NCBI GenBank assembly: GCA_964436785.1
Contig: CAYTEE010000002.1
Coordinates: 1-35,476, forward strand
Source of the DNA: an uncultured Candidatus Saccharibacteria bacterium
Lineage (GTDB): Bacteria > Patescibacteriota > Minisyncoccia > UBA6257 > 2-01-FULL-56-20
DNA length: 35,476 nt
Reading direction: 5' to 3'
This document shows positions 3,303 to 34,685 of the stretch, in pieces. The first letter of the stretch is position 1. Every line of letters begins with the position of its first letter. Both the position numbers and the translations under genes were made by a program. The notes under the pieces are model-generated. The model saw only the letters and a list, made by a program, of their open reading frames with translations. It ran no database searches and was not told the origin of the DNA.

Positions 3303-4091
3303 ATGAAAAAATACTTACTTACAATTTTACTGGGGACCTTCGGGGCAATGGTTCTTGCCGTGCCGGCTCTTGCCGCTACGAACGTATCGCTTACGCCGGC
3401 CAATGTGAGCGTGCGCCAGGGGCAGACCTTTACTCTTACTGTCGGAATAGATCCGCAAGGAGCGAAGAATTATCCCGCAAAAACGGAACTCCTTTATCCC
3501 GCCGATCTTTTGGAAGTAAAGTCGTTTACCCTCGCGGACGGTTGGATATTATTCTCTAAGCCGGGATATGACCTCACGGATAATACGAATGGAGTGTTGA
3601 TAAAAACCGCCGGTTATCCCAATGGCGTGTCTTCATCGACTACTTTCGGAAAGGTTTCGTTTCTCGCCAAAAAGAGCGGCAGCGGAGCGATTACCCTCTC
3701 TAACGCCAGCACTTCCTCGTTCGTACTCGACGCGAACAACCAGAATGTTCTTGCCGGAATATCGGTCAAAACCGCGGTGGTAATATCTGCTCCGGTTGCG
3801 CCTAAAACGGCTCCGAAGACCCCAACAGCCCCGATTACTACCGTGACAAAACCGAACGAGGAAGCTGCCGTAGAAGGAGATGTGCTGGTTCCTCCGGAAT
3901 CGGAAACTGAATCGCAATCGACAACGCCGCAATCTTTATTGGCATCTATCGGTGGCATTGTGGCGCTTGGGACCAACAGCACTGTCGTCGGCATATTGGT
4001 CATCATAGCGATCCTTGTGCTTGTGGGATATATAATTTACGCAGTTACCCGGAAAACGCGGCCCAAAAACTCCGGGGATTCGAAGAAGTAG
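3303..4091 (+). CDS. Cohesin-like domain protein with Pro/Thr linker and C-terminal transmembrane anchor
   Basis: Signal peptide MKKYLLTILLGTFGAMVLAVPALA. The beta-sandwich segment VSVRQGQTFTLTVGIDP...LLYPADLLEVKSF...GKVSFLAKKSGSGAITL is typical of cohesins. The C-terminal segment VVGILVIIAILVLVGYIIYAV is followed by basic residues. I prefer the start at 3303 over 3285 because 3285 overlaps the upstream gene. Confidence 0.75.
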   Translation: MKKYLLTILLGTFGAMVLAVPALAATNVSLTPANVSVRQGQTFTLTVGIDPQGAKNYPAKTELLYPADLLEVKSFTLADGWILFSKPGYDLTDNTNGVLIKTAGYPNGVSSSTTFGKVSFLAKKSGSGAITLSNASTSSFVLDANNQNVLAGISVKTAVVISAPVAPKTAPKTPTAPITTVTKPNEEAAVEGDVLVPPESETESQSTTPQSLLASIGGIVALGTNSTVVGILVIIAILVLVGYIIYAVTRKTRPKNSGDSKK

Positions 4092-4119
4092 AATATCCCT
4101 TAATTTGACAATGTAGAGC

Positions 4120-4148
4120 AAAAACCCGATCCAAGCATCGGGTTTTTG
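4120..4148 (+). terminator. Rho-independent terminator of the cassette
   Basis: AAAACCCGAT-CCAAGC-ATCGGGTTTTT: a 6-bp GC stem extended by A/T pairs, then a T-run at 4143-4147. Confidence 0.7.
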
Positions 4149-4843: not shown

Positions 4844-4984
4844 ATGGGTCCCTCACCTTTGAAGGATAATAGTCGGTCCGAAGCCAAAGCGGGACGATTG
4901 ACGTGGTTTATGAATAATAGTCGATTATTAAACAATAAAATAAGGATTTGCGAACGCTTCGCAATCCTTCAAGGGTGAGGGATG
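4844..4984 (+). promoter_or_regulatory. Start-codon-abutting inverted-repeat element, copy A
   Basis: Left arm CCCTCACCTTTGAAGGAT (4850-4867) pairs with right arm ATCCTTCAAGGGTGAGGG (4964-4981) around a 96-nt interior. The ATG of the downstream gene follows immediately at 4982, and ATGGGT flanks both ends. Confidence 0.7.
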
Positions 4985-6763: not shown

Positions 6764-6840
6764 ATAGCAAGTAGGCGGTAGGAAGTAGGAAAAAATAGAA
6801 AGTAGCAAGTAGTGAGTAGGTAGTAGATAAATAGAAAAAA
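6761..6840 (+). repeat. GTAG-type degenerate heptanucleotide tract starting at the stop codon
   Basis: I count 12 TAG triplets in 80 nt, mostly 7 nt apart (6765, 6772, 6779, 6786; 6796, 6803, 6810, 6817, 6824), covering all three frames. It shares GTAGGCGGTAG and AGTAGCAAGTAG with 14831..14902. Confidence 0.8.
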
Positions 6841-6865: not shown

Positions 6866-6975
6866 ATGGATCCCTCACCTTTCCCGGGTGCAGTAATGCA
6901 GTTTTTGGTATATGTTATAGTCAGAAGCTATTGATGAATAATATGGAACAAAGTCCGCCGAAAGGTGATGGGATG
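6866..6975 (+). promoter_or_regulatory. Start-codon-abutting inverted-repeat element, copy B (degenerate)
   Basis: Left ATGGAT-CCCTCACCTTTC (6866-6883) and right GAAAGGTGATGGG (6960-6972) followed by ATGGAA. The helix is 14 bp with one bulged T, around a 76-nt interior. Confidence 0.55.
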
Positions 6976-8286: not shown

Positions 8287-8288
8287 TT

Positions 8289-8330
8289 GATTTACGAAGT
8301 ACGATTTATGATTTATGAATAGCGAAGCCA
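8289..8330 (+). repeat. Six degenerate heptamers (GATTTAC GAAGTAC GATTTAT GATTTAT GAATAGC GAAGCCA) after the glyQS stop
   Basis: Read directly from the sequence. TGA/TAG triplets fall in all three frames within 40 nt of the stop codon. Confidence 0.65.
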
Positions 8331-8405
8331 AAACCATGCCTAACGGCAGGCGAGCCTGCCAGAACCCCGACACTTGCGGTTGGGGCTATATAATAAACAA
8401 CGAAC

Positions 8406-8543
8406 ATGAACTCGGAAACCCATTCGAAAAACTCAGGGCAGGCCCGCCATTGTCAGAATTGTAAGAATAGTTTTGTTATTGACCCAGAACCACAGCCCCA
8501 GTTTTGGGAAACTAGGGCTGGACTTCGCTTTGTTGTAAGCTAA
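8406..8543 (+). pseudogene. 45-codon ORF resembling the N-terminal zinc-ribbon of the downstream Cys-rich protein (decayed paralog fragment or mini-gene)
   Basis: Translates to MNSETHSKNSGQARHCQNCKNSFVIDPEPQPQFWETRAGLRFVVS*. Its HCQNCKNSFVIDPE...FWE parallels ICQNCKASFTIDASDFQFYE of the 8548 gene. It ends 4 nt before that gene's ATG. Confidence 0.5.
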
Positions 8544-8547
8544 TCCC

Positions 8548-14833: not shown

Positions 14834-14902
14834 GCGGTAGATAGTAGCGAGTAGAGAGTAGAAAAAAATAGTAAGTAGGCTGTAGCAAGTAGAAAGTAGA
14901 AA
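14831..14902 (+). repeat. GTAG-type degenerate heptanucleotide tract starting at the frr stop codon
   Basis: I count 11 TAG triplets in 72 nt, spaced mostly 7 nt apart (14852, 14859; 14869, 14876, 14883, 14890, 14897). Confidence 0.8.
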
Positions 14903-14934
14903 GAAAAAGCCGCTCGGGGGTTGCCCAAGCGGCT
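14903..14934 (-). terminator. Rho-independent terminator for the minus-strand small membrane protein gene
   Basis: Stem AGCCGC/GCGGCT (14908-14913 with 14929-14934). The A-run on the plus strand at 14903-14907 gives a U-tract on the minus strand. Confidence 0.55.
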
Positions 14935-22130: not shown

Positions 22131-23476
22131 TGCCAACGATAAAACAACGATGCGCCTTTATGGCGGCCTTATTGCTGCTTGCGGGGACATTTACGGGAAT
22201 TGGGGCGAAAGCCGCAACCAGCTCCGACGCGTTCGATCCGAATGCATCGACCACCGAATCCATGCGGAATTCTTTGCAACGGCAGATCGAACTCCGGGCG
22301 AAAGATCTGGAACGCGTTAATCAGGAGCTTGTGCAATCCCAGAAAACCCTCAATGAAACCCAAACCCAGAAAACAGGCCTTCAAAAAGAACTGAATAACA
22401 TCCAATACAACACCAATCAGCTGAAACTCAATATCCAATCGGACGAGATCACCATCCAGAAATTAAGCCTAGAGGTCAAAACCCTCCAGTTTGATATCCA
22501 AGACATCAACGCGTCGACGAAAGACAAACGGGCGGCGATCGCGCAGATCTTCCGCGAATTACAGCGCGCCGGAGACAGAAGTTTTCTCATCACCTTCTTG
22601 AAAAGCGCAAGTCTTGCGGACAGCGTGATGCAGGCGCAATCCCTGAACGACTTGAACTCAAAGCTTTCTGTGGACGTCGAGACCCTGAAAGGGCTGCACG
22701 AAGAACTGACAAAAAAGGTCTCCGAATCGAATAATAAGAAAGCCCAAACGGATCAGCACCAGGCAAATCTTCAGAATCGGAAGGTTATTCTTCAGGAACA
22801 GCAAACCGAAAGGCAAACTCTTCTTACACAGACGAAAAACAAAGAAACGGTGTATGCGAAACAAGTCGCCGATCTTAAAAAACTCCAGGAAGATATCGCC
22901 GCCGAGATCGAAGCGATAGACGCCGAACTGCGGGCGAACATCGACCCTAATCTTCTCCCGGGCGCCAAGCCGGGAGTGCTTCTCTGGCCGGTAAATGGAG
23001 GAAGGCTTACACAGGGGTATGGCGCCACGGATTTTGCCCTTCAGGCATATGCGGGAAAGCGGCATAATGGGATCGATATCGGAGGCCTTGCCCTGGGAGC
23101 CGAAATTTATGCGGCAGAAGACGGGACGGTGATAAACACGGGAGACCAGGATAAATTTTGCTACAAAGGCGCCTATGGAAAATTTGTCGTCGTCAAGCAT
23201 CAGAACGGACTCACAACGCTTTACGCCCATCTCTCGAGGATCGGGACGAGTATCGGCCAGGAAGTGAAAAGGGGAGACGTTATCGGATATCTCGGAAAAA
23301 CCGGCTATGCGACCGGGCCGCATCTTCACTTCACCGTATTCGCCACTCAAACCATTCCCCAAGGGACAAGCCCAGAAGGGACAAAACCGTCGCGTTCGTG
23401 CGGGCCGATGCCGGTCGGCGGAGATATAAGTCCGCTTCGCTACCTTGATTCTTCCCGGGTTTCCGCTGCGCGGTAA
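22127..23476 (+). CDS. M23 (LytM-type) peptidase with long N-terminal coiled coil (EnvC-like)
   Basis: Signal or anchor segment, about 250 aa of heptad-rich Q/E/K/L sequence, then HNGIDIGG ... GYLGKTGYATGPHLHFTVF. Confidence 0.88.
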   Translation: MMPTIKQRCAFMAALLLLAGTFTGIGAKAATSSDAFDPNASTTESMRNSLQRQIELRAKDLERVNQELVQSQKTLNETQTQKTGLQKELNNIQYNTNQLKLNIQSDEITIQKLSLEVKTLQFDIQDINASTKDKRAAIAQIFRELQRAGDRSFLITFLKSASLADSVMQAQSLNDLNSKLSVDVETLKGLHEELTKKVSESNNKKAQTDQHQANLQNRKVILQEQQTERQTLLTQTKNKETVYAKQVADLKKLQEDIAAEIEAIDAELRANIDPNLLPGAKPGVLLWPVNGGRLTQGYGATDFALQAYAGKRHNGIDIGGLALGAEIYAAEDGTVINTGDQDKFCYKGAYGKFVVVKHQNGLTTLYAHLSRIGTSIGQEVKRGDVIGYLGKTGYATGPHLHFTVFATQTIPQGTSPEGTKPSRSCGPMPVGGDISPLRYLDSSRVSAAR

Positions 23477-23478
23477 TA

Positions 23479-23621
23479 ATGGATCCCTCACCCTTGTGCG
23501 ATCACGCATACATAGAATACAAATTATTATGAAAAAAGTTTTATATTCCACTTTTATGGATGAGGCTAATAGGCCGCCAGCTATAGTCGCGGAGCGACAA
23601 ATCGCACAAGGGTGAGGGATG
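23479..23621 (+). promoter_or_regulatory. Start-codon-abutting inverted-repeat element, copy C (best copy)
   Basis: A perfect 20-bp helix, 23483-23502 with 23601-23620, includes the A and T of the murE ATG (23619). The interior is 98 nt. The left end is ATGGAT-CCCTCACC and the right end is GGTGAGGG-ATG. Confidence 0.75.
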
Positions 23622-26653: not shown

Positions 26654-28078
26654 ATGAGAAGCACGCAATCAGCCCGCAAAAAACTCCACGCCCACTTTAT
26701 TGGTATCGGCGGGATCGGCATAAGCGCCCTTGCGCGCTGGTTTTTAGCTAAAAATTGGGCTGTTTCGGGCTCCGATATAGCGGGGAGCTCAGTTACTCAA
26801 GAACTCGAGAAAGAGGGCGTAAAGGTCAAAATTGGGCATAAAAAGGGTGGTCCTGCCTGCCGGCAGGCAGGTCTCCCCTCCCGGGTGGATATGGTGGTAT
26901 TTAGCGAGGCGATAGAGCCCCAAAACCCCGAACTTATAGAGGCAAAACGGCGGGGAATCGTACCGCTTTCATATCCCCAGGCCCTTGGGTGCCTTACTAA
27001 GGCATATAAGACGCTTGCGGTTACCGGAAGCCACGGGAAGAGCACCACGACCGCAATGCTCGCCCTCATTCTTATCCGCGCCGGTTTCGATCCGAATGTC
27101 GTCATAGGAACGAAGCTCAAGGAGTTCGGCGGGAAAAATTTCCGTTCGGGCAAAAGCAAATTGTTGGTGCTCGAAGCGGACGATTACAAAGCTGTTTTTT
27201 TGAACTACTCCCCTGCCGCGATAATCGCGACCACGCTCGACCGCGAACACCTTGATGTATACAAGAACCTTGGGAACATAAAAAAAGCGTTTTTGAAATT
27301 TTTTGCGAAAATAAAAAATGGCGGAGCGCTCGTGGTAAACCGCGACGATAAAAACCTCCGCTCCCTCCACTCCCCTATCGCGCGCCTCGCAAAACGCAAT
27401 TCGCTCCGCGTCCTCTGGTATTCGCTAAAAAGCCCGGAAGCGAAACAGATACGGAACGTTCTTAAAATTCCGGGGGAGCATAATGTTTCAAATGCGATTG
27501 CCGCGTACACTCTCGCGACGAAGATATTAAACATAAAAAAACAGGATGCCCTAAAAGCGCTCGCCGGTTATCGCGGAGCGTGGCGCCGGATGGAATTCCG
27601 CGGCTACTACTCCCTACCGCCTACTCCCTACCGCCTACCCGTCTACGACGACTATGCCCATCATCCCACGGAAATAAAAGCAACACTTGAGGCGTTCAAG
27701 GAAAAATTCCCGAAAAGGAAGATAATCTGTGTGTATCAGCCGCACCAGGGCGAGCGCCTGAAGGCGCTTTACCCCGAATTCATCCATTCATTCCACGATG
27801 CCGATACTCTCATTCTCCTTCCGGTTTACGAAGTTGCCGGGCGCGATACGAGATATAAAACTTGGACTTCGGAGCGCCTTGCCGCATCCATTAAAAAACG
27901 ATACCCCAAAAAAGAGGTTTATTATATTTCAAACCCAGAACGAATTAAAGAATTTTTGCGCTCCCACCTCCCACCTCCCACCTACTACCTACTACCTATC
28001 CTCATAATGATGGGCGCGGGCGACATAGCAAACTATACACCGCTTCTTTTAGACAAAAAGAGGAAGCGCGCAGTATAA
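26654..28078 (+). CDS. murC: UDP-N-acetylmuramate--L-alanine ligase
   Basis: HFIGIGGIGISALA, GSHGKSTTTAML, DDYAHHPTEIKATL, and the C-terminal MMGAGDI. Confidence 0.92.
   Translation: MRSTQSARKKLHAHFIGIGGIGISALARWFLAKNWAVSGSDIAGSSVTQELEKEGVKVKIGHKKGGPACRQAGLPSRVDMVVFSEAIEPQNPELIEAKRRGIVPLSYPQALGCLTKAYKTLAVTGSHGKSTTTAMLALILIRAGFDPNVVIGTKLKEFGGKNFRSGKSKLLVLEADDYKAVFLNYSPAAIIATTLDREHLDVYKNLGNIKKAFLKFFAKIKNGGALVVNRDDKNLRSLHSPIARLAKRNSLRVLWYSLKSPEAKQIRNVLKIPGEHNVSNAIAAYTLATKILNIKKQDALKALAGYRGAWRRMEFRGYYSLPPTPYRLPVYDDYAHHPTEIKATLEAFKEKFPKRKIICVYQPHQGERLKALYPEFIHSFHDADTLILLPVYEVAGRDTRYKTWTSERLAASIKKRYPKKEVYYISNPERIKEFLRSHLPPPTYYLLPILIMMGAGDIANYTPLLLDKKRKRAV
26852..26871. repeat. Perfect 20-bp palindrome CCTGCCTGCCGGCAGGCAGG in frame inside murC (encodes PACRQAG)
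   Basis: Read directly from the sequence. It lies in a loop that is about 8 residues longer than the E. coli MurC segment as I recall it (HRPENVRDASVVVV). Confidence 0.75.
27611..27638 (-). repeat. Antisense GTAG-type repeat inside murC (TCCCTACCGCCTAC x2)
   Basis: The reverse complement GTAGGCGGTAGGGA is 13/14 identical to GTAGGCGGTAGGAA at 6771-6784. It encodes YSLPPTPYRLP. Confidence 0.7.
27964..27998 (-). repeat. Antisense heptamer tract inside murC (CACCTCC CACCTCC CACCTAC TACCTAC TACCTAT)
   Basis: Five 7-nt units. The reverse complement contains GTAGGTAGTAGGTAGTAGG (compare GTAGGTAGTAG at 6816-6826). It encodes HLPPPTYYLLPI. Confidence 0.7.
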
Positions 28079-30547: not shown

Positions 30548-31270
30548 CTAAAACTGCAGGTATTTCTCCCACTTTTCGTATAGCGCGCTCGTCGCCCGCA
30601 GGTCCCCGACATTATATTTTGCTATCTCAAGATACTTTTTCTTCTTGAAAAGTGGCGCAACATCATCGCCCGTCACGCCGCCCGCCTTTGGGCTCTCGAT
30701 GCCGAACGCCCGCGACCACAAGTGCAAACTTCCTTTCTTCCGGCTCGCACCATAGAACGTAAGCTGTTCCAGGAGGTCGATGTGGAGCGCCTCCGGATTA
30801 TGCTGATATAAATAGCGCCCGCGCATCAAGTCCTTCGTGGGACGGATGCCCTTTATCGCCGAGCGGATCATCAAAAACGGCACGTCAAAACTCCTTCCAT
30901 TGAACGTAATGAACACCTGATAATGCCGCGCCGCTTCCCAGAATTTTCGGAGCATTTCCTCTTCGTCCATTGGTTTGAACGAAACCCCCTCTTCTTTGGT
31001 TTCGGTGAGCTTCGATCCGGGCGCCTGGAAATATACCGCCCCTTCGTTTTTGTGGTAATCGAGCATTCCTATCGCGACGATCTCGCCCGTCAAGGGAGAA
31101 AATCCAAGGCCGCTCTTCAGGTCTTCGAGCGCCATTTTGTAGTCCTCCTCATCTATAGAATCGCGCTTGATCCAGCGGGTAAGATTTTCCTGCGTTGCCC
31201 TATCGAGAGAATCAAAGTTCTCTCCTATTGTTTCAATATCGAAAACAAGTTTTTGGGTGGCGATTGACAT
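30548..31270 (-). CDS. Predicted 3'-5' exonuclease, RNase H-like fold (PolB-exonuclease-related)
   Basis: LVFDIETIG (Exo I DxE), ITFNGRSFDVPFL (Exo II) and YNVGDLRAT (Exo III YxxxD). Confidence 0.7.
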   Translation of the reverse strand: MSIATQKLVFDIETIGENFDSLDRATQENLTRWIKRDSIDEEDYKMALEDLKSGLGFSPLTGEIVAIGMLDYHKNEGAVYFQAPGSKLTETKEEGVSFKPMDEEEMLRKFWEAARHYQVFITFNGRSFDVPFLMIRSAIKGIRPTKDLMRGRYLYQHNPEALHIDLLEQLTFYGASRKKGSLHLWSRAFGIESPKAGGVTGDDVAPLFKKKKYLEIAKYNVGDLRATSALYEKWEKYLQF

Positions 31271-31299
31271 ATTGGTCCATTATAGAATAGAATTGACCC

Positions 31300-31395
31300 G
31301 CTGGACAGCAGATCGGAACTGGCTTTGAGATGGGTCCTCCAAGACCAACCTCTACCTCCTTCATCTGCAATCTGCTGTCCAGCACCACTTTTTTT
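31300..31395 (+). terminator. Orphan long hairpin followed by T7 run (possible 3' end of a small plus-strand transcript)
   Basis: GCTGGACAGCAG (31300-31311) pairs perfectly with CTGCTGTCCAGC (31372-31383). The T-run is at 31389-31395. There is no plus-strand gene upstream. Confidence 0.4.
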
Positions 31396-31410
31396 ATTTA
31401 TAACAAAGGA

Positions 31411-31558
31411 ATGGCATCCCGTCCCCAATTTTGCCGATACTTTCACGGCGACGCACGCCGTAGGCGGTCCTATTCGGACACTGCGTCGCTCCGAAGATGT
31501 ATGCCGTTTGGTGATTCTGGGTTTTTACTTCAAGAGAAGGCAAAATTGGAGAGGGATG
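31411..31558 (+). promoter_or_regulatory. Start-codon-abutting inverted-repeat element, copy E (degenerate, followed by a decoy L27 start)
   Basis: Left ATGGCAT-CCCGTCCCC-AATTTTGCC (31411-31435) and right GGCAAAATT-GGAGAGGG-ATGGCAT (31539-31562), around a 103-nt interior. The ATG at 31556 opens only MAFSS*. Confidence 0.6.
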
Positions 31559-31601
31559 GCATTTTCTAGTTAAATTTTTTCGCTATCGCTCTAAAATTTA
31601 A

Positions 31602-31739
31602 ATCCCTCACCCAAAAAGGATAAACAATTTTATCGAAGCCAAAGCATTACCCAAACAACTATGATTCAGGCAAAAATCAAGGTCAAAAAATATAACAAGG
31701 ACTTGCGGGGGCTTCGCAATCCTTTTTAGGTGAGGGATG
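31602..31739 (+). promoter_or_regulatory. Start-codon-abutting inverted-repeat element, copy D (rpmA leader)
   Basis: Left arm CCCTCACCCAAAAAGGAT (31604-31621) and right arm ATCCTTTTTAGGTGAGGG (31719-31736), 19/20 paired when the AT of the ATG is included. The interior is 97 nt, and the true L27 ATG is at 31737. Confidence 0.75.
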
Positions 31740-32009
31740 GCACATACCAAAGCAGGGGGTTCAACTAAATTAGGAAGAGAATCGCGGTCCCAACGGCTCG
31801 GGGTTAAGTTACAAGACGGCCACAAAGTGATGCCGGGGCAAATTATCATCCGCCAGCGCGGGACAAAATACTTGCCCGGCGCAAACGTTCTCCGCGGAGG
31901 CGACGACACGCTCTACGCCAAGAAAAGCGGCATAGTAAAATTTTCCACAAAAAATAAAATAAAATTCGACGGCTCGCGGCGCACGGCTACGGTTGTCGCT
32001 GTAGTGTAA
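31737..32009 (+). CDS. rpmA: 50S ribosomal protein L27
   Basis: [24 protein letters not shown]... is the canonical L27 N-terminus. Confidence 0.95.
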
Positions 32010-34031: not shown

Positions 34032-34562
34032 ATGGAACCCAAAATACTCAAAATAGCCGACCGGAAAGAGGAGCGGTTTTTGCGCAAAGCGACCAAAGAG
34101 TTCCGGTTCCCGGCAGATCCCGCGGAAGTCAAAAAGCTTATCGAGATCATGAAAAAGGCCATGCGCAAGGCGAACGGGGTTGGCCTTTCCGCAAATCAGA
34201 TAGGCATCCCGCACAAGGTTTTCGTCGCCGAAGTTCCGGACCAAAACGGAGGAAATAAGTTTTACGCGGTTTTCAACCCGAAGATCGAAAAAAAATCGAG
34301 CGGCACGGTGGATTTTGAAGAAGGGTGCCTAAGCGTCCCCGGAATGTTCGGCTCCGTGCCGAGGCCGGAAAAGATCACGATAAGCGGGCTCGACAAGGGC
34401 GGGAAGCCGCTCAAGATAAAAGCGTGGGGGCTTCTCGCGCGGGTGTTCCAGCATGAGATAGATCACTTGGGCGGCGCGCTCTTTATCGACAAGGCAAAAA
34501 TGATTTATAAAATCCCGGAGTCGGAGCGCCTGCGCAAGAAAAGCCAACTGGCTAATGACTAA
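34032..34562 (+). CDS. def: Peptide deformylase
   Basis: GVGLSANQIG, EGCLSVPG and QHEIDHL motifs are all present. Confidence 0.93.
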   Translation: MEPKILKIADRKEERFLRKATKEFRFPADPAEVKKLIEIMKKAMRKANGVGLSANQIGIPHKVFVAEVPDQNGGNKFYAVFNPKIEKKSSGTVDFEEGCLSVPGMFGSVPRPEKITISGLDKGGKPLKIKAWGLLARVFQHEIDHLGGALFIDKAKMIYKIPESERLRKKSQLAND

Positions 34563-34685
34563 TTGACCTAATTGCTCTAATTTCTAATCAAATCCCGATG
34601 CCAAAATATCTAATGTCAAAATTGGTCATTCAGTCATTTGCGATTAATTAGACCAATTAGGAATTAGGTTAATTAGAAATTCATC

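Follow-up and report, generated by a model that had tools for sequence, protein, structure and literature searches.

Correia elements (CREE/NEMIS) of Neisseria and bacterial MITEs are ~100-150 bp long, carry long terminal inverted repeats and occur in many copies; Correia elements lie beside gene starts, give long hairpins when co-transcribed and vary in presence and absence between strains. Other small palindromes spread by different routes: Rickettsia palindromic elements (RPE) insert in-frame within coding regions, and REPINs use Y1 (RAYT) transposases and GTAG-tagged REPs. Enzymes of the T4 seg and I-TevI type exceed 200 aa, possess DNA-binding domains, recognise one cognate site and have no terminal inverted repeats. 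At the level of translation, bicistronic design (BCD) places a short upstream ORF that ends at or before the main start, and the ribosome melts the structure there and reinitiates. Excerpts of PMC3184786 describe MITE features, those of PMC2817692 and PMC3733652 the REP/RAYT systems, and those of PMC4833913 natural leader genes and the concept of leader-gene reinitiation.

The palindromic element family found here, to which copy D in front of rpmA belongs, is like Correia elements and MITEs in size, inverted repeats, copy number, gene-start sites, hairpins and presence/absence variation. It differs from Correia elements, which duplicate TA, in being fused base-for-base to stop and start codons, and in having a maintained mini-ORF and a nuclease-encoding parent, neither of which is known for Correia elements; moreover, the enzyme of that parent is not a DDE transposase but a GIY-YIG nuclease, and covariation takes the place of conservation in the inner halves of the arms. 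Free-standing GIY-YIG homing genes (T4 seg, I-TevI relatives) are likewise selfish nuclease cistrons between host genes, but the present element has only a catalytic domain of 85-87 aa, is bounded by 20-23-bp inverted repeats and occupies dozens of unrelated junctions. Stand-alone GIY-YIG proteins of the UPF0213 / YhbQ-like type (1ZG2, 1YWL) have the same single-domain size; to our knowledge they have not been described as mobile, palindrome-flanked or stop/start-fused. RPEs and REPIN/RAYT systems share the property that small palindromes are tolerated in compact genomes through their insertion mode, but neither has a GIY-YIG ORF as its origin or links a stop codon with a start. Compared with leader ORFs and BCD, the relay predicted here would sit on a mobile palindromic element and oppose that element's own 20-bp helix. 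GIY-YIG-encoding non-intron insertion sequences in CPR rRNA genes may be relatives of the element; they lie within rRNA genes, and the excerpted accounts of them describe no inverted repeats, stop/start fusion or miniatures.

The window, meaning the whole 35,476-nt stretch of Candidatus Saccharibacteria DNA analysed here, contains copy D at 31602-31738 on the + strand, a 137-nt miniature palindromic element whose P1 arms (31602-31621 and 31719-31738) form a 20-nt inverted repeat that is 95% complementary. It ends ...GGGATG, and this ATG is the true start of rpmA (ribosomal protein L27, 31737-32009, + strand; Pfam PF01016, E 1.3e-30; up to 98% identical to L27 homologs): the start codon consists of the last two bases of D plus G31739 and lies in the right arm. 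D folds with -45.1 kcal/mol (z -5.7 against shuffles), and the predicted helix occludes the L27 AUG. A second hairpin, P2 (TTGCGGG-GGC-TTCGCAA, 31703-31719, + strand), abuts the 3' strand of P1. A mini-ORF on the + strand (31661-31729; MIQAKIKVKKYNKDLRGLRNPF*) starts in the loop and runs through an AAGGTC motif (31679-31684) and P2 into the right arm, where its stop, TAG at 31727-31729, lies 7 nt upstream of the L27 ATG. The predicted 20-bp RNA duplex makes RNase III processing of D possible.

We define the family by termini ATCCCTCACC...GGTGAGGGAT that pair in a helix of 19-24 bp, a stem length found in 65 of 70 copies. D has these termini and helix, has its right tip fused to an ATG, carries a relay ORF (a loop-to-right-arm ORF ending 3-13 nt upstream of the host gene's ATG) and is the best match, on the + strand, of covariance model R1 (81.6 bits, E 1.5e-15), which was built from 63 copies, all from outside the window. 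Altogether four D-family copies occur in the 35 kb, all on the + strand and each ending in the ATG of an ORF, and the genes behind them (a DUF11 gene, glyS, murE and rpmA) are mutually unrelated. Copy A (4848-4984, +; 68.4 bits) is fused to the ATG (4982) of the DUF11 protein gene; the stop of its mini-ORF (4910-4978; MNNSRLLNNKIRICERFAILQG*) is the conserved TGA, and TGGG is repeated on its two flanks. Copy B (6870-6975, +; 32 bits), fused to the ATG (6973) of glycyl-tRNA synthetase, is short (105 nt), has an inserted T that destroys the TGA (GGTGATGGG) and is flanked by TGGA/TGGA. Copy C (23483-23621, +; 69.7 bits) lies between an M23 peptidase stop (23474-23476) and a murE-like ATG (23619), with arms complementary at 20 of 20 positions and a mini-ORF at 23529-23615 (MKKVLYSTFMDEANRPPAIVAERQIAQG*). 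The sequence GTGAGGGATG, allowing at most one mismatch, occurs 11 times against 1.4 expected.

Beyond the window, more than 116 loci with exact 10+10-nt arms were found in GTDB genomes, overwhelmingly in Patescibacteria, with near-identical copies inside one contig in L061 and in L071. The genes downstream of family copies represent 86 Pfam families, and copies are enriched ahead of genes for ribosomal proteins, translation factors and other housekeeping functions. Among 73 copies, 39 have a left tip (TA|ATCCCTCACC) whose TAA terminates, in frame, an upstream ORF 80 codons or longer, and 51 have an upstream stop 0-10 nt from that tip; the right tip (GGGTGAGGGATG) gives the next gene's start, and with it an ORF of 60 codons or more begins in at least 74 unique copies. 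The element sits exactly at gene boundaries, the left tip usually completing TAA and the right tip supplying the AT of ATG, and a stop or start codon is the only flank that the copies have in common. Rfam yielded no match at the gathering threshold across the whole window and nothing above noise for 31200-31800 when E values up to 10 were admitted, and the window contains no tRNA or tmRNA gene. Sequence and keyword searches of the literature found no description of the element, which is apparently a previously undescribed element of CPR bacteria, a status that is provisional because the check was a literature search of limited coverage plus Rfam.

Longer forms with the same arms reveal what the miniatures resemble. 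A search for long-distance arm pairs, applied to the window and 836 kb of flanks, led to ~290-nt forms (285-294 nt) that encode an 85-87 aa GIY-YIG nuclease (PF01541, E 1e-14 to 1e-16), at L026:7066-7357, in L050, in L074 (with such an ORF at L074:3748-4011) and at ~20 metagenome loci. In the full element, 20-23-bp terminal inverted repeats (ATCCCTCACCCTT... / ...AAGGGTGAGGGAT) surround the nuclease ORF, whose stop is the conserved right-arm TGA (...SLMLQG*G-M); the miniature motifs AAGGTC and AAGGATTTGCG correspond to the two ends of this ORF, 5' and 3' respectively. Judging from sequence, the ~130-nt copies are internally deleted derivatives of the GIY-YIG element. Because no GIY-YIG copy lies in the 35-kb window, we infer the source of D's mobility from other genomes; a transposase of any other kind was not seen in the window or its 836 kb of flanks. 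As in MITEs, small size, terminal inverted repeats and multiple copies go together here with a longer, enzyme-encoding partner that has the same termini, the partner being found in other genomes and none in the window. As for a homing endonuclease gene, the long forms alone encode a nuclease of the appropriate family (PF01541), and in place of a single cognate target the element occupies junctions of many unrelated gene pairs. The nuclease ORF also matches TIGR01453, 'group I intron endonuclease', weakly, and its nearest solved relatives by sequence, both of weak similarity, are PDB 1ZG2 BH0048 (E 8e-4) and 1YWL EF2693 (E 6e-3). We know of no chemistry by which an 85-aa GIY-YIG domain by itself would transpose or home, and no insertion sequence as small as ~290 bp is known to us.

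Comparison of orthologous sites shows the elements to be polymorphic at both rpmA and murE. The preliminary description had called for the rpmA upstream region of sibling genomes to be compared for zero, one or two copies: D is absent from siblings L001-L004, whose L27 is 96-98% identical, and E, the element preceding D, is variable among them. At murE, L121 (91% identical) has an empty site and L122 (86% identical) another version of copy C. Because D is missing in close siblings and E varies among them, these elements evidently come and go; in L074 one element is nested within another. A 36-nt spacer in L121 was considered as a relic of copy C, but a match of 6 nt only was unconvincing, and phage as a vector was set aside after a single match in IMG/VR.

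Two kinds of junction are seen: TAA|TCCC without duplication, and ATGNN|TCCC...GGGA|TGNN with a 4-5-nt repeat. Such a repeat (TGNN), resembling a target-site duplication (TSD) of the gene's first bases, accompanies many copies, including A, B, E and other subfamilies with TGAA/TGAA or TGAG/TGAG; it is absent from the majority TAA|TCCC class and from D, and we found no single insertion chemistry that covers both junction kinds. D has no clean TSD and is not a clean insertion, ~6-7 nt of the sibling empty site being missing. Its arrival at rpmA would be recent: downstream of the older E, it would have entered the start codon at A|TG with loss of a short stretch of flanking sequence. We also considered, and rejected, a conserved leader peptide (M-D/G-P-S-P) beginning at the upstream ATGG: most copies elsewhere have TA in that position, so a flanking repeat is the better reading of ATGG.

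The preliminary description of the rpmA spacer had reported two palindromic elements in tandem with helices of about 20 bp, the second occluding the L27 AUG, and arms and folds bear this out; ATGGCAT does stand at 31411-31417 and 31556-31562, ATGGCAC at 31737, and both MAFSS* (31556-31573) and the open frame 31411-31569 are present. Its proposal that the repeated ATG context arose by insertion at start codons agrees with the family-wide fusion of the right end to a start codon. The idea that E and D are copies of one element fares less well. Copy E (31416-31557, + strand) is palindromic, with arms ATCCCGTCCCCAATTTTGCC (31416-31435) and GGCAAAATTGGAGAGGGAT (31539-31557) that pair over 17-19 bp with one bulge, a fold of -60.6 kcal/mol (z -3.8 against shuffles), a TGGCA direct repeat around it (31412-31416 and 31557-31561) and an end that also reads ...GGGATG. 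The ATCCC/GGGAT tips and overall architecture are, however, all that it has in common with the D family, and model R1 does not detect it at E up to 10. Its arms resemble another arm subfamily, ATCCCGCCCCAGTTTTAC at L072:5023-5128. By sequence, then, E is strictly not a copy of D, and it is best read as an older copy belonging to a sister arm subfamily; it is not tied to any GIY-YIG parent. L001 has a diverged orthologue of E with perfect, compensated arms, and L003 and L004 have a 45-nt remnant. On the + strand, a frame (MASRPQF...AKLERDGIF*, 31411-31569, inside an ORF at 31330-31569) is open across the whole of E, and its C-terminal part shares its frame with the L001 mini-ORF MAKLERDAHF... 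The middle ATGGCAT, which opens MAFSS* on the + strand and had been called a decoy L27-like start, is genome-specific: siblings have ATGCTCAT there.

In the miniatures, the relic ORF of 20-34 codons starts in the loop and ends within the right arm, at TGA-GGG-ATG or at a TAA or TAG a few nt earlier. By the looser criterion, 61 of 72 copies have a loop-to-right-arm mini-ORF, whereas shuffles have 19.4 +/- 3.7 and the reverse strand gives 13; an ATG-initiated ORF of at least 10 codons that ends at the conserved stop occurs in frame 0 in 40 of 72 copies, and the two remaining frames have 6 and 0. Conservation of the peptides across the family is poor, and a conserved small protein was ruled out because they are too divergent. 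A terminal hairpin of at least 6 bp, of varied sequence, occurs in 39 of 72 copies compared with ~8 of 72 shuffles, and the inner 10 bp of the arms covary, which is unusual for ordinary MITE inverted repeats. Selection on a sense-strand RNA should leave far more G.U than A.C pairs, but mismatches in P1 over 118 copies comprise 41 G.T and 45 A.C; given this equality, the helix lacks the bias that wobble in a sense RNA would give. Upstream of ordinary genes in this genome the sequence is A/T-rich and without Shine-Dalgarno motifs, a context that the mini-ORF starts match and from which the G-rich, caged host start differs. A Shine-Dalgarno / anti-Shine-Dalgarno reading of GGTGAGGG as the main explanation was dropped because ordinary genes lack Shine-Dalgarno sequences and the conserved TGA is the stop of the element's ORF. 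Conservation of the ORF suggests that the short reading frame probably keeps the downstream gene translated, acting as a translational relay that probably offsets the helix hiding the start codon.

Taken together, these observations make it likely that D and A-C are MITE-like derivatives of a GIY-YIG element, placed at stop/start junctions and equipped with a relay, and that E belongs to a sister subfamily. Under the mechanism that we propose, the inverted repeats would serve mobility at the DNA level and, once transcribed, would unavoidably fold into a 20-bp RNA helix with the host start codon hidden in it. Ribosomes on the internal ORF would unzip the right arm, stop 3-9 nt upstream of the host AUG and hand over to it by termination-reinitiation, as in a natural 'bicistronic design' relay, and through this handover insertion would therefore be nearly harmless, even before rpmA. 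More tentatively, as a wider claim that we regard as plausible without yet leaning towards it, the long and short forms may together be a new class of minimal autonomous Patescibacteria element of ~290 bp, targeting stop/start sites, with a relay-neutralised hairpin and with miniatures in operons for ribosomal proteins and other core functions in several CPR classes. Such a class would have as its target the places where one gene stops and the next starts, TAA|TG or A|TGNN, and some miniatures may have been co-opted as translational coupling devices.

The preferred reading, of mobile GIY-YIG derivatives, would explain a recurrent CPR feature, namely 130-300-nt spacers that hold perfect 20-bp palindromes within operons that are otherwise very compact, those for ribosomal proteins included, which would be better annotated as mobile-element relics than as gene-specific regulators. 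If the mechanism is true, one catalytic domain and two arms make up a mobile element with an unusual stop/start target and a built-in avoidance of polar effects resembling the bicistronic designs of synthetic biology. The nuclease and arms are small enough for direct testing, and the elements are ready markers of strain-level variation in uncultivated Patescibacteria.

Among the alternatives, the best survivor, which we nonetheless consider unlikely, is a host-domesticated, immobile cis-RNA device whose helix would cage the start so as to couple translation or control dosage, perhaps with operon mRNAs also processed by RNase III, and which would permit downstream translation only after a ribosome has read the mini-ORF or has ended translation at the stop adjoining the helix upstream. 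A stop codon placed right at the base of the helix (39 of 73 copies), the maintained mini-ORF, P1 and P2 conserved in structure while varied in sequence, and enrichment before ribosomal-protein, translation-factor and housekeeping genes all suit such a device; presence/absence and version replacement among close siblings, nuclease-encoding parents with the same arms, a P1 without G.U over A.C bias and the lack of gene-family specificity do not. Decidedly less probable is a mobile promoter/RBS cassette, in which a promoter in the A/T-rich loop would start the mRNA past the left arm, leaving no RNA helix and making P2 a 5' stabiliser. The loop is indeed A/T-rich, with TAATTA/TATAAC-like stretches upstream of P2, and P2 lies just 5' of the start region, but a consensus scan found no + strand promoter-like site within D or E, most copies lie in operons directly after a stop, where a promoter is unneeded, and the frame-specific loop-to-right-arm ORF would be left unexplained. 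Sigma-54-like and -35/-10 readings of AAGGTC and TTGCG, checked by eye, misfit the required spacing.

Very improbable, and largely refuted by the element's distribution, is the L27-specific leader raised in the preliminary description, in which both helices would be bound by L27 or cut by RNase III and the rpmA mRNA autoregulated or processed. Autoregulatory leaders are common on ribosomal protein genes, a perfect 20-bp duplex has the size of an RNase III substrate, and the predicted D helix does bury the AUG. The same element, however, precedes 86 Pfam families and four unrelated genes of the window, neither confinement to one gene family nor a curated RNA model (no Rfam match, ribosomal-protein leaders included) marks it as an autoregulatory leader or riboswitch, and the 'decoy' start is not conserved; since D is missing from siblings with 96-98% identical L27, it is no conserved rpmA regulator. 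An invertible DNA switch (inverton), in which a recombinase flips the segment between the inverted repeats, is scarcely credible: 20-bp inverted repeats do enclose ~100 bp beside gene starts, but interior orientation is fixed in all copies examined (the order of AAGGTC, P2 and mini-ORF is constant), + strand model scores exceed - strand scores, the reverse-strand ORF control is at background and no linked recombinase gene was found.

The remainder of the rpmA spacer, upstream of E, has features of its own. A sigma-70-like promoter, TTGACA-18-TAGAAT at 31264-31293 on the + strand, agrees with the consensus at 11 of 12 positions and is the only good + strand match in the spacer by consensus scan. 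Beyond it, on the same strand, a 14-16-bp hairpin (31300-31383) is followed by a T-run, the whole (31300-31399) resembling a small RNA or terminator and being kept in L003 and L004.

Four palindromic elements in the window share the termini ATCCCTCACC...GGTGAGGGAT, all on the + strand and all with last bases that form part of the next gene's ATG: copy A (4848-4984) lies ahead of a DUF11 protein gene, copy B (6870-6975) ahead of the glycyl-tRNA synthetase gene (glyS), copy C (23483-23621) ahead of a MurE-type ligase gene, and copy D (arms at 31602-31621 and 31719-31738) ahead of the gene for ribosomal protein L27 (rpmA). With at most one mismatch allowed, the window has 11 occurrences of the motif GTGAGGGATG where 1.4 are expected, and Rfam gave no match to any of the four copies. 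With one genome per GTDB species, at least 116 loci carry both terminal 10-mers at the right spacing, about 34 of which may be chance matches by a back-of-envelope estimate. They fall overwhelmingly in Patescibacteria (Jorgensen-, Harrison-, Lipton- and Brennerbacteria, Paceibacterota, 'Saccharibacteria' bins), often as multiple copies per genome or contig; the L27 protein places the window close to Candidatus Liptonbacteria. The four copies belong to one family: with a covariance model trained on 63 copies from other loci than the window, the bit scores are 81.6 for D, 69.7 for C, 68.4 for A and 32 for B, and the + strand always outscores the other. E, a probably older palindromic element upstream of D, goes undetected by this model. 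Genes downstream of 66 copies represent 86 Pfam families, including ribosomal proteins L13, S11, L21, S4, L29 and L4 as well as EF-G/Tu, SSB, pilus ATPases, ATP synthase and GyrA, a breadth that leaves the L27 autoregulation proposed in the preliminary description unsupported. Separately, the spacer at 8287-8547 may hold a decayed copy, with gcgaagccaaaacc at 8320-8335 similar to an interior motif, cgaagccaaagc, common to copies A and D; the family model finds no match in this spacer.

The most striking feature of the family is that the element spans exactly from a stop codon to the next start codon, with the upstream stop at its left tip and the start at its right. An upstream ORF of at least 80 codons has its in-frame TAA stop made up of the directly preceding TA and the element's first A in 39 of 73 copies, and this stop lies 0-10 nt from the element in 51 of 73; an enlarged set gave 40 of 79. 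Within P1, the helix of the two terminal arms, the search pattern itself dictated the outer 10 bp, which are thus uninformative on conservation; the inner 10 bp are variable and covary (at one pair, CG 24, AU 15, GC 15, UA 10). A second hairpin abutting the 3' strand of P1, varied in sequence, reaches at least 6 bp in 39/72 copies versus about 8/72 in shuffles, and the loop is A/T-rich with an AAGGTC motif. An RNA helix selected on the sense strand is expected to tolerate G.U far more than A.C. Because G.T is no commoner than A.C among P1 mismatches (41 and 45 in 118 copies), the palindrome looks like a requirement at the DNA level, for example as inverted repeats, a hairpin or a cruciform, and the RNA helix would then be its unavoidable by-product.

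Pairing the arms at longer distances recovered versions of ~290 nt with the same arms, whose interior is a single 85-87-codon ORF encoding a GIY-YIG catalytic domain (PF01541, E 1e-14 to 1e-16); among solved structures, the stand-alone UPF0213 proteins 1ZG2 and 1YWL come closest to it, at weak similarity. At one such locus, L074, the ORF ends ...SLMLQG-TGA-GGG-ATG, so that the conserved right-arm TGA is the nuclease stop, one codon before the host start. A metagenome scan with the L074 protein gave 80 loci. Homologs of at least 63% identity lie almost all within ATCCCTCACCCTT.../...AAGGGTGAGGGAT, spanning 285-300 nt, with TA at the left flank and G at the right; remoter homologs have other arm types, such as CCCCAACACTAATC... 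and ACCCCCACACC.... These longer forms establish, at the level of sequence, a parent element encoding a predicted nuclease. In the miniatures, AAGGTC matches the part of the nuclease ORF that encodes VYVLRSK (GIY), and AAGGATTTGCG matches the ...FAKGFA... part close to the ORF's end; given this correspondence and the shared arms, the 130-nt copies read as internal-deletion derivatives of the ~290-nt element. The 35-kb window itself contains no GIY-YIG copy. Other arm subfamilies, with tips (A)TCCC/GGGA(T) or CCCC/GGGG (TCCCGTTAGA, TCCCCCACA, CCCCAACACTAATC, CCCCACACCATAAC), occur at L005:6021-6141, L019:2439-2544, L024:1140-1244 and 4025-4143, L142:194-527, L151/L152, L149 and L070:2815-3120; some enclose a GIY-YIG ORF, many have an ATGAA/ATGAG flanking repeat, and the whole set looks like one superfamily in which nuclease and arms co-vary.

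Element presence varies among close relatives. Copy D is missing from the rpmA siblings L003 and L004 (L27 98% identical) and L001 and L002 (96%); the site reads ...AAAATTTAGACAAAAATGGCAC and ...CATAGGACAAAATGGCAC in siblings and ...AAAATTTAA[D]GGCAC in the window, which places D at A|TG of the start codon with ~6-7 nt of the old leader gone and supports the earlier suggestion of insertion at the start codon. The E position is also variable: L003 and L004 keep a 45-nt remnant, and L001 has a complete element whose arms are different and pair perfectly (ATCCCGCTCTAATTTTGC / GCAAAATTAGAGCGGGAT). The murE junction is empty in the siblings L121 (91% identical) and L123 (63%) and carries a different element version in L122 (86%). 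A 139-nt miniature is nested in the full GIY-YIG element at L074:3592-4017, between left arm and nuclease ATG, and L061 and L071 each have several near-identical copies. Many copies are flanked by a direct repeat of the gene's first bases (TGGG for A, TGGA for B, TGGCA for E; TGAA or TGAG in other subfamilies), the majority junction class TAA|TCCC has no such repeat, and we found no single mechanism for both junction types. This neighbourhood also has a putative second selfish nuclease, a LAGLIDADG homing-endonuclease ORF (L122:2778-3287) among the cell-wall genes of the L122 contig.

The 466-bp spacer between a divergent PolB-exo-like gene (30548-31270, minus strand) and rpmA (31737-32009; Pfam Ribosomal_L27, E 1e-30) holds both D, whose 20-nt arms are 95% complementary, and E, whose arms (31416-31435 and 31539-31557) pair over 17-19 bp with one bulge. 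Their predicted RNA folds reach -45.1 kcal/mol (z -5.7 versus shuffles) and -60.6 kcal/mol (z -3.8), respectively. The two long hairpins, the ATGGCAT on either side of E, the ATGGCAC of the L27 start and the small frames listed in the preliminary description are all present; the triple ATGGCA holds for the window and is partly a lineage accident, its middle copy being ATGCTCA in both sibling lineages. The stretch 31264-31399 combines a strong sigma-70-like promoter (TTGACA-18-TAGAAT) and, directly after it, a hairpin (stem 14-16 bp, loop 56 nt) with a T7 run. L003/L004 keep this hairpin with a variable loop, and its arm sequence has no match among the other loci examined; upstream of E, D and rpmA, it could serve as an attenuator or be a ~95-nt small RNA.

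The right arm reads ...GGG TGA GGG ATG in the host-ATG frame. ATG-initiated ORFs of at least 10 codons end at this conserved TGA in 40/72 copies (6 and 0 in the other frames), and under a looser criterion, at least 12 codons from loop into right arm, 61/72 copies qualify versus 19.4 +/- 3.7 for shuffled loops and 13 for the reverse strand. Mini-ORFs of 20-34 codons, beginning 26-62 nt into the element and ending at TGA (-6), TAA (-12) or TAG (-10), are present in ~52/72 copies. The peptides are weakly conserved; a predicted ORF is maintained inside the element. The mini-ORF of D (31661-31729, MIQAKIKVKKYNKDLRGLRNPF*) stops 7 nt upstream of the L27 ATG. In L001, which lacks D, a mini-ORF (MAKLERDAHFVSYSLRS*) begins in the E right arm and ends, in frame, 6 nt short of the L27 ATG; the frame from the left ATGGCA, open across E in the window, is the same. 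Ordinary window genes have A/T-rich upstreams without Shine-Dalgarno, which mini-ORF starts resemble; host starts behind elements are G-rich and base-paired. In copy B (6931-6975) an extra T (GGTGATGGG) abolishes the conserved TGA, so the element frame continues in-frame into glyS, with a possible N-terminal extension of 13-14 aa from ATG 6934 or TTG 6931.

We propose that the inverted repeats serve mobility and that, once transcribed, the helix would hide the host AUG. Ribosomes on the internal ORF, whether nuclease or relic, would unzip the right arm, stop 3-9 nt before the host AUG and reinitiate there; for copies inside operons, a ribosome that terminates on the adjoining TAA may help to open the outer helix. 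A relay of this kind would render insertion tolerable before essential genes (rpmA, glyS, murE). Synthetic bicistronic designs use reinitiation of the same sort. The step is also like leader-ORF reinitiation (PMC4833913). Where the window has copy C, the sibling L121 has a 36-nt spacer (within L121:2964-3003) with an 11-codon mini-ORF. It opens 1 nt past the stop of the M23 peptidase gene (TAAT ATG), and its own stop overlaps the start of murE as TAATG, a putative translation relay without any element.

Within the literature searched, no description of the element was found by sequence or keyword; the nearest mention, in PMC11270868, concerns GIY-YIG proteins of CPR rRNA insertions, which are located in non-intron insertions and do not resemble homing. 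The element is akin to a MITE or to a free-standing homing-endonuclease-like element, and its minimal size, stop/start targeting and putative relay ORF appear unusual against the known kinds in that literature. Elsewhere in the window, nested CTAATTG / CAATTAG inverted repeats at 34559-34681, with several overlapping 13-16-bp arms just before an ATG near 34685, resemble either an operator array or a further family of repeats. Periodic GTAG/TAG runs (e.g. TAGCAAGTAGGCGGTAGGAAGTAGG...) right after stop codons at 6765-6840, 14838-14906 and 27607-27638 (reverse complement) supply stops in several frames.
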